Assembly: GCA_918797485.1 (NCBI GenBank)
Contig: CAKKNE010000001.1
Span: forward strand, 5,518,001 to 5,582,000
Direction of reading: 5' to 3'
Length of the DNA stretch: 64,000 nucleotides
Source: Pelagomonas calceolata
Lineage: Eukaryota
Under the pieces are notes generated by a model. That model was not told the DNA's origin and ran no database searches. It worked only from the letters and a program-made list of their open reading frames with translations. A program made the position numbers and the translations under genes. Of the stretch, positions 27,891 through 45,163 are shown in pieces (the first letter of the stretch is position 1; each line of letters starts with the position of its first letter).

Positions 27891-30539
27891 TTACAAGTTA
27901 ATCTCGATCGCCGCGGGGAACGCGGACGAGTCATTGGATGACAGCACCTCCCCGACGACCGCCGCGGAGGCGTCGCCGCCCGCGCGTAGAGCCGCGACGC
28001 AGGCCGCGGCCCGATCGACGGGCACCGCCGCGAGGAGCCCGCCGGCGGTCTGCGGGTCGTAGAGCAGCTCGTACGCCGCACCTGCTTCGATGCCTTCAGA
28101 GTGGTTCGCCACGGCGCGCCGCGCTCTTAAATTTTCCGGGTGTAAAGAGGACACAACACCCATCGAGGCCAGCCGCCGCGCACCTTGTAGCATGGGCACG
28201 TCATTCAAATCGATACGCACGCGCGCCCCATTTGACCCGCGGCACAACTCAGCTAAATGTCCAATCAATCCAAAACCTGTCACATCGGTACACGCGAGGC
28301 ACCCGAACCGCCGTAAGGTAGCCGCGGCATGAGCGTTCGACCGGCACATCCCCTGCAAAGCTTCGGCGACGTCAGACGCGTCAGCTAAGGCGCGCATGTC
28401 GCCGGCGAAGACGACGCCCGTGCCTAAGGGTTTCGTGAGTATCAGAGCGTCTCCCTGTTGGAGATTGCCCTTGGCCAGGACCTCATCTATGGAACCGTTT
28501 ATGGCAAATCCAAGAGCGAGTTCACTCCCTTCGCACGTGTGGCCTCCCACTAGCGAACAACCAGCTTCATCTAGAGCTTTTCGTGCCCCAGCCATCATCT
28601 GCCTCAATGAATCTTCGGTCTGTCGTTCCCCCCCATACGGCACGACGCATAGCGCGAGGGCGGAAGCGGGCTTCGCACCCATGGCGTCGCAATCCGACAA
28701 AGCATGGTTCGCCGCGACCTGGCCGAAGACGTAGGCGTCTCCTATGAATGATCTAAAAAAGTCGACGGTGTGCACGAGTCGCGTGTCGTCGTAGGCGACG
28801 ACGGCGCCGTCGTCGGGGGCATCGAGTCCGACCTCCACCACACATCTATCCGACGAGGGCACGTCCGGCAAGGACGACAAGGCCCTGGTCAACGTGTTCG
28901 AACCAACCTTGGCGCCGCAGCCGCCGCAGCGCATCGGCGTCTTGCGGAGGACGTCGAGGGCGTTCGCGCGAGAAGCAATTGCATCCTCGACATCCTCCTC
29001 CTCATCTAGTGAAGGCAAGCCACCGGTGTACTGCCACATCCACTTGCGGTCGATCCAGTCCTTCAATCGATACAACCATTCACCCTCCAAAGCTAAATCT
29101 CCTCGAGAAGCCACACAAGTCCCATCACCAAGACCGACTAAAGCCAACAGTCGCGTCTGCGGAACATGCTCCACGAACTCCTCTCCCCTAAGGTCGGCCA
29201 CGAGGTTCTGGTACAAAGCCATCCCCGCCATCACCGCGAAGACGCCCGCCTTTGGTCTCGGATGCCCGTCAACTGTACTACAGTCGCCGGCCGCGTAGAC
29301 TCTCTGTGGAATGTCGTTCTGCAGACACTGGAGTTTGAGGTTCGTCCTGAGGAAGCCTCTCTCATCACAATCCAAGCCGCTCCTTGATAGGAATTCAGGC
29401 GCGGCCGCCTGCGTGCACCACGCGCACTCGTCAAAAGGTATCGACACAGTGCGGCCTTCATGGCGACACGTGAGGACCTTCTCGCCATTATCTGTCGACG
29501 TCTCGAGGGCCTCATGCGACAGTAAGACGCGGATGCCCTTTCGCCGCACGGCTTCGGTCAATAAACGCCTCACTCCGACAGCGTGGCCCTGGAGCAGTTC
29601 CGACGACCTTGCGACCAAAGTAGCGGACAGGCACGTTAATGACCGTCCTCGTCGTCGCAACTCCGCAGAGACTCGCGCGACCATGGCTAATATAAGTTCG
29701 ACACCCCCCGCACCGCCGCCCACGACGACCAACCGGAAGCTCGCATCGTCGTCGAGCCTCGATAACAGCGCGTCCCACTTTTGAGCGAAGGTCGCGATCG
29801 GCTTGACTGGAGTTACATACGCAGCCGGCTTCGACGGCGCGATGCCGACGTTTATTGAGCATACATCGTACGGTAGAGGTGGGCGACCGTCCTTGAGGTG
29901 GAGCAATTGTGCATCACTGTCAATATGCGTCACCTCGCCGGCTATGAGTCGAGCCCGTGCCACTCGAGCGAGCTTGTTCAGGTCGATGTGGGCCTCTCGT
30001 CGCGAGTAGACGCCGGCGACGTGGCCCGGGAGCATGCCCGAGTATGGGGTTTCCACGTCCCTCGTGATTAATGTGAGACGAACTCCTGGCATCGGGCACA
30101 TGCCGAGCATCCTTAAGACATGGACGTGCGCGTGGCCGCCGCCCACGAGCACCAGATCCGTGACGACCGGTTTTGCATCAGCCTCCATCCGCAAGGCCAT
30201 CATGTCCTTTGTCCCTGTGGATGAGAGTTGGCGCTGCGTCCTCACGTGCGTTAAAGGGTGCAACCGGTACACCGCATCTTTATCGTTTGGCGCTTTCGCG
30301 TCGGCCTCCGCTACTTCCAGTCTTCTTGCTCTTTCTAGAGACGCCAGGAAGAGCAGTTCTCTTAAGCGAGACCACCGCCAGTTTCCGTCCTTGGTTGCGT
30401 TTTGTGCGATAATCTGTGCGATTTCGGCCTGCACGCGCAGCCATTTCTGGAGGCTGATGCCGCGGCGCTTGGCTGCGAGTAATGCGAGGGCGCCGGCGGT
30501 TGCGGCGATCGCTGCGGCCTGTTGTTGGCTGCGTTTCAT
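27891..30539 (-). CDS. selD: Selenide, water dikinase fused to an N-terminal FAD-dependent pyridine nucleotide-disulfide oxidoreductase domain
   Basis: LVLVGGGHAH, YSGMLPG and GGGAGGVE (oxidoreductase). MRCGGCGAKVG, DDGAV, TVDFF, LVGGHT, LILTKPLGTG, TDVTGFGLIGH and DPQTAGGLL (SelD). Confidence 0.95.
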   Translation of the reverse strand: MKRSQQQAAAIAATAGALALLAAKRRGISLQKWLRVQAEIAQIIAQNATKDGNWRWSRLRELLFLASLERARRLEVAEADAKAPNDKDAVYRLHPLTHVRTQRQLSSTGTKDMMALRMEADAKPVVTDLVLVGGGHAHVHVLRMLGMCPMPGVRLTLITRDVETPYSGMLPGHVAGVYSRREAHIDLNKLARVARARLIAGEVTHIDSDAQLLHLKDGRPPLPYDVCSINVGIAPSKPAAYVTPVKPIATFAQKWDALLSRLDDDASFRLVVVGGGAGGVELILAMVARVSAELRRRGRSLTCLSATLVARSSELLQGHAVGVRRLLTEAVRRKGIRVLLSHEALETSTDNGEKVLTCRHEGRTVSIPFDECAWCTQAAAPEFLSRSGLDCDERGFLRTNLKLQCLQNDIPQRVYAAGDCSTVDGHPRPKAGVFAVMAGMALYQNLVADLRGEEFVEHVPQTRLLALVGLGDGTCVASRGDLALEGEWLYRLKDWIDRKWMWQYTGGLPSLDEEEDVEDAIASRANALDVLRKTPMRCGGCGAKVGSNTLTRALSSLPDVPSSDRCVVEVGLDAPDDGAVVAYDDTRLVHTVDFFRSFIGDAYVFGQVAANHALSDCDAMGAKPASALALCVVPYGGERQTEDSLRQMMAGARKALDEAGCSLVGGHTCEGSELALGFAINGSIDEVLAKGNLQQGDALILTKPLGTGVVFAGDMRALADASDVAEALQGMCRSNAHAAATLRRFGCLACTDVTGFGLIGHLAELCRGSNGARVRIDLNDVPMLQGARRLASMGVVSSLHPENLRARRAVANHSEGIEAGAAYELLYDPQTAGGLLAAVPVDRAAACVAALRAGGDASAAVVGEVLSSNDSSAFPAAIEINL

Positions 30540-31023: not shown

Positions 31024-33055
31024 ATGAACAAGCTCCTCTGGGCGCTCTTCGCCGCCGCGGCGGCCTTCGCCCCGGCCCCGGCGCCGCGCGCCGCGCGGCC
31101 CGTGCTCAAGGCGGTCAACAACGGCCGCGGCGTCGCGCAGAAGCTGCGGAGGTCAGGCGTCCGCCTTCAAGCGAAGGCAGAACCCCCGCGCGCCGCCGTC
31201 GTCGCGCAGGCCGCGGCGGCCGCCGTCGAGGACGCCGAACCGACGTGGTTCGACACGTACACCAAGGTCTCCGGCGCCTTGACCAACTTATTTCCGGTCT
31301 GGACGGTCGTCTTCACGTTGTGGGCCCTCAAGGACCCGTCGGCCTTCGCCTGGCTGACCACTAAATACTTCACGGCGGGCCTAGCGATTCTCATGCTGAG
31401 TATGGGTATTACGCTGGCCCCGAAGGACTTCCAAAGAGTGGCGACGCGGCCCAATGCGGTGTTATTGAACTTCGCGCTGTGCTACGGTACCGCGGCCAGC
31501 GTCCTATATTCATAAAGGGGGTGTAGCTCAGTGGCAGAGCGTCCGCTTTGCATGCGGAAAGCCCAGGGTTCAAACCCCTGCTCCTCCACACACACAAAAA
31601 CAACTCCGTGGCGCAATGGACAGCGTATCAGACTTCGAATCTGGGGGTTGCGGGTTCGAGTCCCGTCGGAGTTGTTTGCGTTCGCTCGACGGCGCGACGC
31701 CGCCGCCGCGACGCACCACGATCTTTCGTGGCGCGCCTGCTCGACGGCGTCACGCTGTCGCCGCGACGCACCACACCACACAAAATCTGGACGGACTGGA
31801 AATCTGAAGGCTCCGGGTTCGACTCCCGGGTCGGTCTACCGCGGAATTGAACTCAAAGCGAGATAGTGTGGCCGAGTGGTTAAGGCGGTAGACTTGAAAT
31901 CTACTCCCGCAAGGGTCGCAGGATCGATTCCTACAAAATCGATGCGCGTTCGAACCCTGTCACTATCGCGCACGTTGATGATGTGGCCGAGTGGTCTAAG
32001 CTCCTGGGAGCGACCAGAGGCGCTGGTTTTAGGCACCAGTCTTCGGGCGTGGGTTCGAACCCCACCATCATCACTTGAGTTCCATGCCGCACGTTCGTAT
32101 CCGTGGCCGAGTTGGTCTAAGGCGTTGGATTTAAGCCCCAATCTCTCCGGAGGCGTGGGTTCGAACCCCACCGGATGCACACATTTGACCGATGACGGTT
32201 TCGCCAATCAGATGCCAGTCCTGAGAGTTAATCGTGTGTCGGACACGAGGCTGACGGTACACTCTCGCAGGCATGATGCCGGCGCTCGGCCTGACCCTGG
32301 GCAAGATGTTCGCGCTAGATCCGGCTTTAGTGGCAGGGATGGTCCTCGTCGGCTCGATCAACGGCGGCCAGGCGTCGAATCTCTGCACGTTCATTGCGAA
32401 CGGGAACGTGGCCCTCTCGGTGCTCATGACGACGGCAACCACCATTGGAGCTATCTTCATGACTCCCCTATTGTGCAAGACCTTTCTGGGGACGGTCGTG
32501 CCCGTCGACGCCGCGGGCATTGTCGTCTCTACTCTACAGGTCGTCCTCGCGCCCATCTTAGTAGGCATGACGATGAACGCCAAGTTCCCGAAAGTCGTGA
32601 AGAAGATCACTCCTGTGACACCCGTCATAGGCATGGTCTCTACCTGTCTGCTGGTGGCCGCGGCTGTCGGGCAGGTCGCCGAGCCGATCCTGGCGGCTGG
32701 CCTCAACCTGCAATTACCGGTAATGCTCCTCCACTTGGTCGGCGGCATCGTCGGCTACTGGGGCGCTCGGGCTCTCGGCTTCGGCGAGACGTCGTCGAGA
32801 ACGATGGCCATCGAGACCTCGATGAAGAGCTCGGCCTTCGGCTTTTTACTAGCGAAGCTCCACTTCGGCGCCTTCGCCGCCCGCGTGCCTTCCGCGGTGT
32901 CCGTGGTCTGGATGGCGCTGACGGGCTCGTCGATGGCCGTCGCGTGGCGCTTCATGCCGGTCAAGCCGGTCAAGTTTGATAGAAAAGTCAAGGAGCGCTT
33001 CGAGTCCGTGGATCTCCTCACGCGGGCGAAGAAGCTCTTCGGCAAGGAGAAGTAG
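31024..33055 (+). CDS. BASS2: Plastid bile acid:sodium symporter family transporter (BASS1/2-like); exons 31024-31486 and 32271-33055
   Basis: AAAFAP presequence; LTNLFPVW, MLSMGITL, GGQASNLCTFIANGNVALSVLMT and RTMAIE. GT-AG intron 31487-32270 joins ALCYG|MMPALG in frame. Confidence 0.88.
31517..31588 (+). tRNA. trnA-UGC: tRNA-Ala(UGC), inside the BASS2 intron
   Basis: GGGGGTGTAGCTCAGTGG...CCGCTTTGCATGCGG...GGTTCAAACCC...CTCCTCCA with the G3:U70 identity pair. Confidence 0.95.
31602..31674 (+). tRNA. trnR-UCG: tRNA-Arg(UCG), inside the BASS2 intron
   Basis: AACTCCG/CGGAGTT acceptor stem, TCAGA-CT TCG AA-TCTGG anticodon arm, GCGGG-TTCGAGT-CCCGT T arm. Confidence 0.95.
31684..31774. repeat. 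Two imperfect 36-bp direct repeats within the tRNA cluster
   Basis: GCTCGACGGCG..ACGC...CGCCGCGACGCACCAC at 31684-31719 and 31739-31774. Confidence 0.8.
31791..31837 (+). pseudogene. Orphan 3' portion of a tRNA (anticodon-like arm, T arm, acceptor 3' strand) with no adjacent 5' half
   Basis: CGGA-CTGGAAA-TCTG, AAGGCT, CCGGG-TTCGACT-CCCGG, GTCGGTC. No D arm or matching acceptor 5' strand seen. Confidence 0.6.
31862..31968 (+). tRNA. trnS-UGA: tRNA-Ser(UGA) with a 26-nt non-canonical intron (31923-31948) at T-arm position 53/54
   Basis: GATAGTG/CACTATC acceptor, GTAGA-CT TGA AA-TCTAC, variable arm CCC-GCAA-GGG. Removing the insert restores GCAGG-TTCGAAC-CCTGT. Confidence 0.92.
31977..32073 (+). 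tRNA. trnL-UAG: tRNA-Leu(UAG) with a 19-nt non-canonical intron (31999-32017) in the D loop (20/21 region)
   Basis: GATGATG/CATCATC acceptor, CTGGT-TT TAG GC-ACCAG. Removing the insert restores GCCGAGTGGTCTAAGGC. Confidence 0.92.
32097..32179 (+). tRNA. trnL-UAA: tRNA-Leu(UAA), inside the BASS2 intron
   Basis: GTATCCG/CGGATGC acceptor, GCCGAGTTGGTCTAAGGC D arm, TT TAA GC loop (one A-C mismatch in the stem), long variable arm, GTGGG-TTCGAAC-CCCAC. Confidence 0.9.
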
Positions 33056-38141: not shown

Positions 38142-39260
38142 TTAGAGAACTACGTCTCGCGCTGCCAGCTTCGCCCGCGCTTCTTCCATCCCGCCCTGGA
38201 CCCTTCGGGCCTCAGGGTGCGATTTGCCAAATACGCGCTTATACGTCCTTGCGACACATTCGAGCGTCGTCACGGCCTCGCGGAGATCATCGAGCGTGGC
38301 GTCGGTGTCCAAGTAAAGTGCCCGCGCGTAATTGAAGCGCATCTTGAGTGTGAGTTCATGACCCTCGCCGAGGACGCGCCGCGCCACGGGCATCATTTTT
38401 ATTAACAGTGATTTGGCTTCTTGGAAGCGCTCTAGTTTCACAAGGGACATCGCGTAGTTGTTGGCTGCCATGATAGTTCTCTGATGTTCCTCGCAGTGGA
38501 GCTTCAAATGTCCGGAGTATACGTCTCGCCGCATCCGCAGGGCCTCTTCAAATCGTCCAAGCGCTCCATACGTGTTCGCAAGATTGTTCTGCGCGTCGAG
38601 TATGCTAACCTCTATTCCGCCACTGCGCCGTATCGTAGCTAACATGGCCTCTCTCACGGGCAATGCCTCCTCGTGGTGTTTTGCATCGTGTAAACCGTTC
38701 CCAAGCAGGTTCATCGCCAAGCACCGAACCGAGTCCTCTGGCCGCCCCACGTACGTCTTCCAGCACGCCCACCCGAGCGCGCATGCCACGACGCCATGGT
38801 AATACTGCTGGCACAGGCCGCAAAAATCCCACCGCATCCACCTCTCAATCCGCGCCTTCTCGCCCAAATTGTTCTCCTCGGCCTCGTCCATCAAAATCTT
38901 TGCCTGCTCCGCCAGACACGACACGTGCGCGAAACCCGCCGTCCCGCGGCACGCACACCCGCGCACGAGGCCCTCCTTTGTTTTCCAGTGGAGCGCCTGC
39001 GTGCAAATGAAGCACGTCTGGCCCTTCGTGTCCTCGGCGCACGCCTCGACGGCCTCCGCGACGGCCTCCTTGTATTTTTTGTCGGCGTGGTATTGTTCTG
39101 CGTTGCCGCCGCGGTGTATTTTCTTACACATCTGCTTGTGGCCGCGGCGCCAGTGGTCATGCTGGCAAGTTTTGTTACAATATCTTGTATGACACCTTAT
39201 GCATCGCGGCGCGTTGTGGGCCAGTGGGGCGGCGCAGGCGGCGCAATTTGTGAGGATCAT
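38142..39260 (-). CDS. MYND zinc finger + RINGv-like + TPR protein
   Basis: CAAC..C..C..YC...CQ..HW..GH...C; CFIC...CACRGTAGFAHVSCL; kinesin-light-chain-type TPRs (NNLANTY, NNYAMSL). Confidence 0.85.
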   Translation of the reverse strand: MILTNCAACAAPLAHNAPRCIRCHTRYCNKTCQHDHWRRGHKQMCKKIHRGGNAEQYHADKKYKEAVAEAVEACAEDTKGQTCFICTQALHWKTKEGLVRGCACRGTAGFAHVSCLAEQAKILMDEAEENNLGEKARIERWMRWDFCGLCQQYYHGVVACALGWACWKTYVGRPEDSVRCLAMNLLGNGLHDAKHHEEALPVREAMLATIRRSGGIEVSILDAQNNLANTYGALGRFEEALRMRRDVYSGHLKLHCEEHQRTIMAANNYAMSLVKLERFQEAKSLLIKMMPVARRVLGEGHELTLKMRFNYARALYLDTDATLDDLREAVTTLECVARTYKRVFGKSHPEARRVQGGMEEARAKLAARDVVL

Positions 39261-43786: not shown

Positions 43787-45049
43787 TTACGCGTTTTCAA
43801 AATCGCTCGTTTCTGATATATACGAAGTGGTCGTCGCCGCCGTGTCGGCGTCCTCCTCCGAGTCGGCCGAGTACTCGTACTTACCGTCGTAATGGTACGC
43901 CAAACGGGTCTCCGGCGTGAGATCATCGATACTCCAGTCGAGCTGCTCGTCACGTACTTGCCACAGAAGGTCCCACAAGCTCTCGGTCATGACATGGTCC
44001 TCGCCATGAACGCGGATCGATGTCTCGACCAACTCCTCGAGGATCTCCAGGGCCTTGCGCAGGTCCTCGCGGTAGTCGTCATAGCCGTAGAAGTGGAAAT
44101 CGTGGAGGGTCATCGCGTACAATTCCTTCAAGTGGAATTCATCAACGTCGTCCCCGACCTTCTGCAAGTCATATAAATTGCTCAATAGCTCCTTGGCCTC
44201 GTGCAAATGCCTGTGGTGTACGAGATCCGCTGCTAGTTTCCCGGCAGCCAATAAGGTCGATCTGTGCGAATTTCCATAAAATTGTCCCTTCTCGCAATAA
44301 ATCTCGCGTGAGGTGGCGATAGCCGCATCAGTCCGGCCGAGTTTCTCGTAGCACTCTTTCAGATTATTCAGGACGTCTATGACTCCTTCTTGATTAACAG
44401 GGAACTCCGTACGAAGCTTCGCCAACTGTGACTGGTGCACGAGAAGTCCTTCTTCCCACCGCTCATCTTTCATCATACTCGTTGCGAGACGATTCAGTGC
44501 AACGCGCCCAAATACATTGTCGCAGTACGTCTTCCAGCACGCCCATCCAAGCGCGTGCGCAACGACGCCGCGGTACTCTTGCTCGCACAGGCTACACGTA
44601 GACCACCGGTCCCATCTCGCCTGATAGACCTTGTCATCCAAATTGTTCTCCACCGCCTCCGCGACCAAAATCTTCGCCTGCTCCGCCAAGCACGACACGT
44701 GGGCAAAGCCCGCCGTCCCGCGGCACGCGCACATGCGCACGAGGCCCTCATTTGTGCGCTGAAAGACGCCCTTCGTGCATATGTAGCACGTCTGACCTTT
44801 CGCGTCCTCGGCGCACTTCTCGACCGCGACCGCGACGGCCTCCTTATATTTTTTGTTGGCGTGGTATCGTTCCGCGTCGCCGCCGCGGTGTATTTTCTTA
44901 CAGATCTGCTTGTGGCCGCGGCGCCAGTGGTCCTGCTGGCAGGTGGCATCGCAATATCTGGATCGGCATCGCACGCATCGTGGCGCGTCGTGGGCCAGTG
45001 GGGCGGCGCAGGCGGCGCAGTTTGTGAGTAGGTACGCAGACGGCGCCAT
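43787..45049 (-). CDS. MYND zinc finger + RINGv-like + helical-repeat protein (paralog of 38142-39260)
   Basis: N-terminal LTNCAACAAPLAH...LGWACWKTY closely matches the paralog; the C-terminus diverges. Confidence 0.85.
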   Translation of the reverse strand: MAPSAYLLTNCAACAAPLAHDAPRCVRCRSRYCDATCQQDHWRRGHKQICKKIHRGGDAERYHANKKYKEAVAVAVEKCAEDAKGQTCYICTKGVFQRTNEGLVRMCACRGTAGFAHVSCLAEQAKILVAEAVENNLDDKVYQARWDRWSTCSLCEQEYRGVVAHALGWACWKTYCDNVFGRVALNRLATSMMKDERWEEGLLVHQSQLAKLRTEFPVNQEGVIDVLNNLKECYEKLGRTDAAIATSREIYCEKGQFYGNSHRSTLLAAGKLAADLVHHRHLHEAKELLSNLYDLQKVGDDVDEFHLKELYAMTLHDFHFYGYDDYREDLRKALEILEELVETSIRVHGEDHVMTESLWDLLWQVRDEQLDWSIDDLTPETRLAYHYDGKYEYSADSEEDADTAATTTSYISETSDFENA

Positions 45050-45163
45050 CGGTGCTACTATCTTCGCGCGCGCGATAGGTTTTGTTCGGGTGACAAAAAC
45101 GGGTTTCCAGTACGGGGTAGAGGGGCTGCTCAATAAGCGACTCTCTCTCCCACACTTACGCGC

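Follow-up and report, generated by a model that had tools for sequence, protein, structure and literature searches.

Introns at unusual positions of nuclear tRNA genes are described from Cyanidioschyzon merolae, where inserts of 11-69 nt lie in the D loop, D stem and T arm and carry hBHBh' and HBh' motifs (PMC3728597). That paper reports Sen2, Sen34 and Sen54 but no Sen15 and no box-binding subunits of TFIIIC. Excision of these ectopic introns was demonstrated by RT-PCR, which was also needed to see the intermediates, and the tRNA genes themselves are single units with an upstream TATA and a T-run (PMC3728597). Similar introns are predicted in Chondrus crispus (cited in PMC13578239). In the nucleomorph of Guillardia theta, a relict red-algal nucleus, short introns of the D and T arms, including 3-nt introns without a BHB, are excised according to RT-PCR (PMC4090602). 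Archaeal introns cut by EndA, in Thermoproteales and others, have a 4-bp central helix and 3-nt bulges, and are cut after the second bulge base; D-loop positions are common among them and 53/54 is a listed position (PMC4090602, PMC8450103). A 2023 review treats splicing at non-canonical positions by the endonucleases of eukaryotes outside animals and fungi as an open question (PMC10485636), and the list in a 2026 review is confined to red algae, nucleomorphs and some of the green algae (PMC13578239).

Two further systems concern the surroundings of a tRNA gene. Pelagophyte introners are described as spliceosomal introns that recur in many copies, begin with a GT or GC donor, finish with an AG acceptor and have inverted-repeat ends; at a given site, some relatives have one and others do not (PMC9481584, PMC9860276); the word tRNA is absent from the main texts of both papers. 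In Trypanosoma brucei, tRNA-Sec is processed from a protein-gene transcript, as are intron-encoded snoRNAs (PMC2943599). In the literature covered, which holds few subscription journals, we found no report of BHB introns in stramenopile nuclei, nor of introners that carry tRNAs.

Our window is a stretch of 64,000 nucleotides of Pelagomonas calceolata, with 62% GC and eukaryotic genes. The segment 31977-32073 is confirmed as a nuclear tRNA-Leu(UAG) gene interrupted by a BHB insert (Table 1). The Rfam tRNA model scores it at 53.3 bits and places the insert in the D loop. ARAGORN makes no call on the unspliced form but accepts the 78-nt tRNA-Leu(UAG) that is left when the insert is deleted. The insertion site, position 21/22 in our tRNA numbering, is not the canonical eukaryotic site 37/38, one base 3' of the anticodon. 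With only ~2 bp and a UUCG loop, the variable arm (32040-32048) is short for a class II tRNA; the same arm recurs in two loci of other origin, L021 and L024.

Table 1. Features of the tRNA cluster and of its host gene, in window coordinates
Feature	Position	Strand	Remarks
Host gene, bile acid:sodium symporter (BASS) family	31024..33055	+	415 aa after splicing
Spliceosomal intron GT..AG, 784 nt	31487..32270	+	RNA-proven; encloses whole cluster
Intron 5' terminal motif	31487..31504	+	common to tRNA-holding introns of other host genes
tRNA-Ala(UGC)	31517..31589	+	first gene of cluster
tRNA-Arg(UCG)	31601..31675	+	
Orphan tRNA 3' half	31793..31837	+	3' strand of anticodon stem, T arm, 3' strand of Trp-type acceptor
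tRNA-Ser(UGA)	31862..31969	+	26-nt BHB intron at 53/54 (31923-31948)
tRNA-Leu(UAG) 5' exon, positions 1-21	31977..31998	+	gives GGTC of central helix and TA of 5' bulge
BHB (HBh') intron, 19 nt, position 21/22	31999..32017	+	
tRNA-Leu(UAG) 3' exon	32018..32073	+	anticodon TAG 32030-32032, short variable arm, discriminator A
tRNA-Leu(UAA), intronless	32097..32180	+	
Decayed tRNA-Trp(CCA), 5' part	32187..32224	+	intact in most related loci; predicted pairing with orphan half
Imperfect inverted copy of 5' motif, just before acceptor	32241..32260	+	predicted terminal stem

The earlier note on this DNA had given the letters and coordinates of the insert exactly. The two helices that it proposed, GGTC/GACC in the center and GCTC/GAGC inside, form in our predicted fold with pair probabilities of 0.87 and 0.94. 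Its two bulges fared differently. TA^A is a true 3-nt bulge, whereas AG^A is not a strict one, as the exon side offers only a possible single U-G pair, with a predicted probability of ~0. In the cloverleaf fold, AG^A is located inside a 4x3 internal loop adjoining the D stem. Given this weak closure on the exon side and the loop beside the D stem, the 3' cut site of the 21/22 intron fits, according to our modeling, the relaxed HBh' type better than a strict hBHBh'. The D arm restored by cleavage had been called nearly identical to that of the neighboring Leu(UAA), and the sole difference is an extra U17 in Leu(UAA). When the letters of the insert are shuffled, 233 of 200,000 sequences reach a 4-bp central helix (G-U allowed) and four inner pairs in any equivalent register.

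The first reading of this DNA overlooked the setting of the cluster, all of which lies in a spliceosomal intron belonging to a protein-coding gene. In four poly(A) runs of one sample, of each of which 6-12% was examined, the joint left by removal of this intron occurs in 132, 100, 77, and 62 reads. The protein encoded by the joined exons is 97% identical to transcript-derived relatives and 79% identical to proteins of Aureococcus anophagefferens. Another protein encoded in the window groups with sequences named Pelagomonas calceolata. Within the intron, the order is Ala, Arg, orphan 3' half, Ser, Leu, Leu, and decayed Trp. Elsewhere in the window, an 882-aa protein on the minus strand (27891-30539) joins a pyridine nucleotide-disulphide oxidoreductase to AIRS domains, presumably the layout of a fused selenophosphate synthetase, and two related MYND-RING-TPR genes of an expanded family are also on the minus strand (38142-39260 and 43787-45133).

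We scanned metagenomes with 25 exon bases fixed, an insert of 5-35 nt left free, and no pairing required; intronless copies are invisible to such a scan. It returned 36 loci. Thirty of them share the anticodon stem of the window, i.e. hold the same gene, and the remaining six are stand-alone genes of other organisms. tRNA clusters in spliceosomal introns with shared end motifs were observed in the window and in L001, L004, L018, L020, L023, and L030.

In 24 of 31 loci, a related motif starting with GT lies ahead of the first tRNA; in the remaining seven, the contig starts within the cluster. An imperfect sub-terminal inverted repeat is clear in the window and in L001, L004, L010, L018, L023, and L026, and was not recovered in the others. 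Host families were assigned by Pfam in 40 frames, 15 of which had no match; there are about ten families, all sense to the tRNAs. The exons adjoining the tRNA introns, on the tRNA strand, belong to ABC, cyclophilin, cold-shock/CCCH, methyltransferase, TRM13, NAD-binding, SPRY, LETM1, SSF (a weak match), and BASS proteins. Only exons adjoining an intron end were counted because L034 looks chimeric, with a BASS exon before and a cyclophilin exon after one cluster; some contigs, such as this one, are probably chimeric through repeats. Pfam matches on the opposite strand in L003, L011, and L028 were rejected as hosts, since they sit beyond the cluster-holding introns and read as neighboring genes.

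One ABC gene holds the Leu-bearing intron at three separate sites, all of which are empty in other loci. Two further sites, in the cold-shock gene, are also empty in relatives, for a total of five insertion sites in two host genes. No target-site duplication is evident at the tRNA-holding introns, and a loose motif scan of the window gave no second clear member of the family. These comparisons suggest that the tRNA clusters are mobile, host-transcribed cassettes. Empty sites are shown, and we infer that the cassette moves as an introner. Like pelagophyte introners, these are repeated introns with site presence and absence and, in several loci, inverted-repeat ends; unlike them, they carry tRNA genes, and the two are set side by side by their described features rather than by a comparison of family ends.

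How the cluster is transcribed is a separate question. We lean slightly towards release of the tRNAs from the Pol II transcript of the host. Poly(A) reads connect neighboring tRNAs across the spacers, the matched host genes of about ten families flank the clusters on the tRNA strand, and TTTT within 40 nt after the last tRNA occurs in only 2 of 28 rows (three tails being incomplete), compared with 5 of 6 for the Leu genes in the unrelated stand-alone loci. All three argue against the alternative in which the tRNA intron is spliced as proposed but the cluster is a normal Pol III unit (single or read-through) that only shelters in the host intron. We nevertheless give this alternative considerable weight, a little short of an even chance. 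The P. calceolata gene table lists, by annotation only, Pol III subunits and Brf1 alongside two endonuclease genes with the PF01974 catalytic domain, Sen54, RtcB, and PRORP (PMC9481584). In addition, the first genes of the cluster have intact internal boxes, an AT-rich patch precedes tRNA-Ala, and tRNA genes located in introns may retain Pol III promoters (PMC2943599). Up to early chromosome 6 of the table, i.e. among ~14,550 or more of 16,667 listed genes, there is no Sen15 or TFIIIC label (PMC9481584). The missing TFIIIC label counts against a Pol III unit, yet TFIIIC subunits diverge fast and a missing label means little. Release from a host transcript would resemble the origin of tRNA-Sec in T. 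brucei. There, however, one special Pol II tRNA lies in a polycistron (PMC2943599), whereas here clusters of ordinary tRNAs lie in cis-spliced introns and their Pol II origin is putative.

The insert itself is real and under selection. The 30 loci and the window hold 17 distinct inserts of 19-25 nt. In all 17, GACC followed by two free bases closes the insert, and the 4-bp central helix is kept. The inner helix, of 3-5 bp overall, has at least four pairs in 16 of them and three in one. Its first pair is seen as C-G, G-C, A-U, and U-A, its third pair takes four types, and the letters of the bulge (AG, CC, CT) and of the loop differ among inserts. Across 12 of the 19-nt copies, 99% of cells are paired, compared with 85.9% in shuffles (0 of 500 reach the observed value) and 31-55% in slid registers; only three pairs covary in these equal-length copies, a number attained by 42 of 500 shuffles. 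The exon positions left free in the scan are constant, except that 6 of 31 copies show a compensatory change in a single acceptor pair. The loci are related and partly duplicated, and 31 copies do not amount to 31 independent events. Some inserts begin with G or T and none ends in A, which leaves 21/22 as the sole register fitting all 17. There is no intronless Leu(UAG) among the fetched loci. The exact Leu pattern gave two matches in 185,579 prokaryote genomes, both outside tRNA; with no archaeal tRNA among them, there is no sign of recent transfer. In scans of viral sequences, one gave no match and another a single non-tRNA match.

In the RNA data, sense-strand poly(A) reads span the cluster with the Leu insert still present, in unspliced forms only. 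Among the joints listed in these poly(A) runs, which do not sample mature tRNA, none is a 19-nt skip or a spliced tRNA junction. The reads also reveal at least two further Leu copies with different but paired inserts, matching L004/L023 and L036, and ~35 of the 58 X21 reads at the insert site carry two variant inserts, both paired, with no intronless form listed. These variants speak against the view that the insert-bearing gene has no function, whether as a pseudogene or as dead cargo carried by the mobile intron, with a hairpin inherited by accident and an intronless gene elsewhere supplying Leu(UAG). So do the exons, which are fixed while the 17 inserts vary and yet keep both helices; in a pseudogene the exons would drift too. 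Such decay is therefore very unlikely, even though decayed material lies in the same cluster (the Trp remnant and the orphan half), the poly(A) reads hold no mature product, and insertions in the D and T arms of multi-copy eukaryotic tRNA genes are usually read as pseudogenes (PMC4090602). Even more improbable is retention of the insert as a D-arm extension, e.g. one that compensates for the short variable arm, for although every RNA read listed keeps an insert, the poly(A) reads are precursors and not mature tRNA, the conserved helix would sequester G18 and G19, and the same helix with its 3-nt spacing occurs at three unrelated positions, one of them in the T arm.

These three positions are 20b/21, 21/22, and 53/54, at each of which the 4-bp central helix recurs with 3-nt spacing. 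A permissive enumeration with BHB rules and ARAGORN was noisy (2712 candidates, 276 passing), and from it we retained just the three positions that recurred, which were then counted anew. The companion intron, in the adjacent Ser(UGA) gene, proved real as well (Table 1), and only 3 of 200,000 shuffles of this insert reproduce the geometry, compared with the 233 for the Leu insert. Among the fetched loci, all 22 Ser(UGA) copies, whose selection did not depend on an intron, have a BHB intron at 53/54, 13 of them distinct, with the central helix 4/4 throughout. By contrast with this gene, 4 of 13 Leu(UAA) copies in these loci have a BHB intron, at 20b/21. The intron was seen in L006, L007, L028, and L034, and the last three hold forms with and without the intron in one cluster; these mixed clusters are a natural pair for intron gain or loss. 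The earlier claim of an active non-canonical tRNA splicing system thus finds comparative support, in that three tRNA genes show one geometry at three positions, the helices covary, and the exons are fixed.

The stand-alone loci extend this picture. In L021 (233-340) and L024 (1430-1556), a Leu(UAG) gene has two BHB introns, at 21/22 and at 53/54; their host is another eukaryote, possibly chrysophyte-like. Relatives of the protein adjoining L024 carry the names Spumella and Durinskia and share 35-41% identity with it, a weak hint that this locus comes from another ochrophyte. For the neighbor protein of L021, ESM Atlas returned nothing above 0.8. L005, L017, L019, and L033 have the 20b/21 intron; the geometry was computed for L005 and L019, and the other two share identical inserts.

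The cluster also holds half a tRNA. In 23 fetched loci, the orphan 3' half is conserved, with a covarying T stem. Its sequence is complementary to two parts of the downstream tRNA-Trp, the anticodon arm and the acceptor strand. The decayed Trp of the window and of L008 has kept the segments that would pair, and one change in L008 is compensatory. Where tRNA-Trp(CCA) is intact, as in L001, L028, L030, and others, its anticodon stem has a conserved A31-C39 mismatch. The orphan half might act as a scaffold, bracketing Ser-Leu-Leu so that they can be processed. We rejected a circularly permuted tRNA, as there is no constant BHB and, depending on the locus, 0 to 5 nt separate the pairing segment from the stem, and a C/D-box guide, as the distance to a CTGA resembling a D box is variable.

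Taken as a whole, the comparisons argue that the alga very probably uses its own tRNA splicing endonuclease to cut out the 19-nt insert at the two bulges, with ligation by RtcB. The cluster would be copied as one long precursor, somewhat more likely than not within the host pre-mRNA, from which RNase P and RNase Z would release single pre-tRNAs. G18 and G19 are required for the tRNA elbow. In the predicted fold, which the covariation favors, GACC of the intron pairs with G18-G19-U20-C20a of the exon and would block the contact between D loop and T loop, which would keep the unspliced RNA from adopting a tRNA fold. An endonuclease of the Sen2/Sen34/Sen54 type would then cut TA^A and AG^A, reading the local shape and not the distance from the tRNA body, and RtcB would join the exons into a normal tRNA. 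The same endonuclease would also act on Ser(UGA), at 53/54, and on those Leu(UAA) copies that have an intron at 20b/21. By annotation, the enzyme set of P. calceolata appears to mirror that of C. merolae.

Such a shape-guided splicing system would not be a new mechanism, since the same kind is known from red algae and a nucleomorph. Like those of C. merolae, the introns interrupt nuclear genes (PMC3728597). However, a stramenopile belongs to another supergroup, the Leu(UAA) intron is present in some copies only, splicing is predicted here from sequence, and multi-copy clusters in spliceosomal introns take the place of single genes. The central helix, the bulges, and the predicted cut after the second bulge base are as in archaeal introns, but the host here is a eukaryotic nuclear gene. 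G. theta likewise has short introns in the D and T arms (PMC4090602), although in its relict nucleus and not, as here, in the main one. In P. calceolata, an intron type known from elsewhere appears in a new supergroup, in a nested arrangement undescribed in the literature that we found.

As a cultured and abundant ocean alga with substrates at three positions and with intron-plus and intron-minus copies of one tRNA, P. calceolata makes these proposals directly testable. Our data suggest that shape-based tRNA splicing is widespread. Standard tools miss such genes, ARAGORN recovering three of the five tRNA genes of the window, so the numbers of tRNA genes given for such algae are probably incorrect. 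More tentatively, and less likely than not, much of pelagophyte tRNA might be snoRNA-like: cassettes in mobile introns bounded by inverted repeats would hop between and within hosts, be transcribed by Pol II and mature in nested steps (spliceosome, RNase P/Z, and a shape-reading endonuclease at 20b/21, 21/22, and 53/54), with transcription dependent on TFIIIC reduced or lost. If the tRNAs are indeed borne by mobile intron cassettes, stand-alone Pol III genes would no longer be, as the rule has it, the source of nuclear tRNAs.
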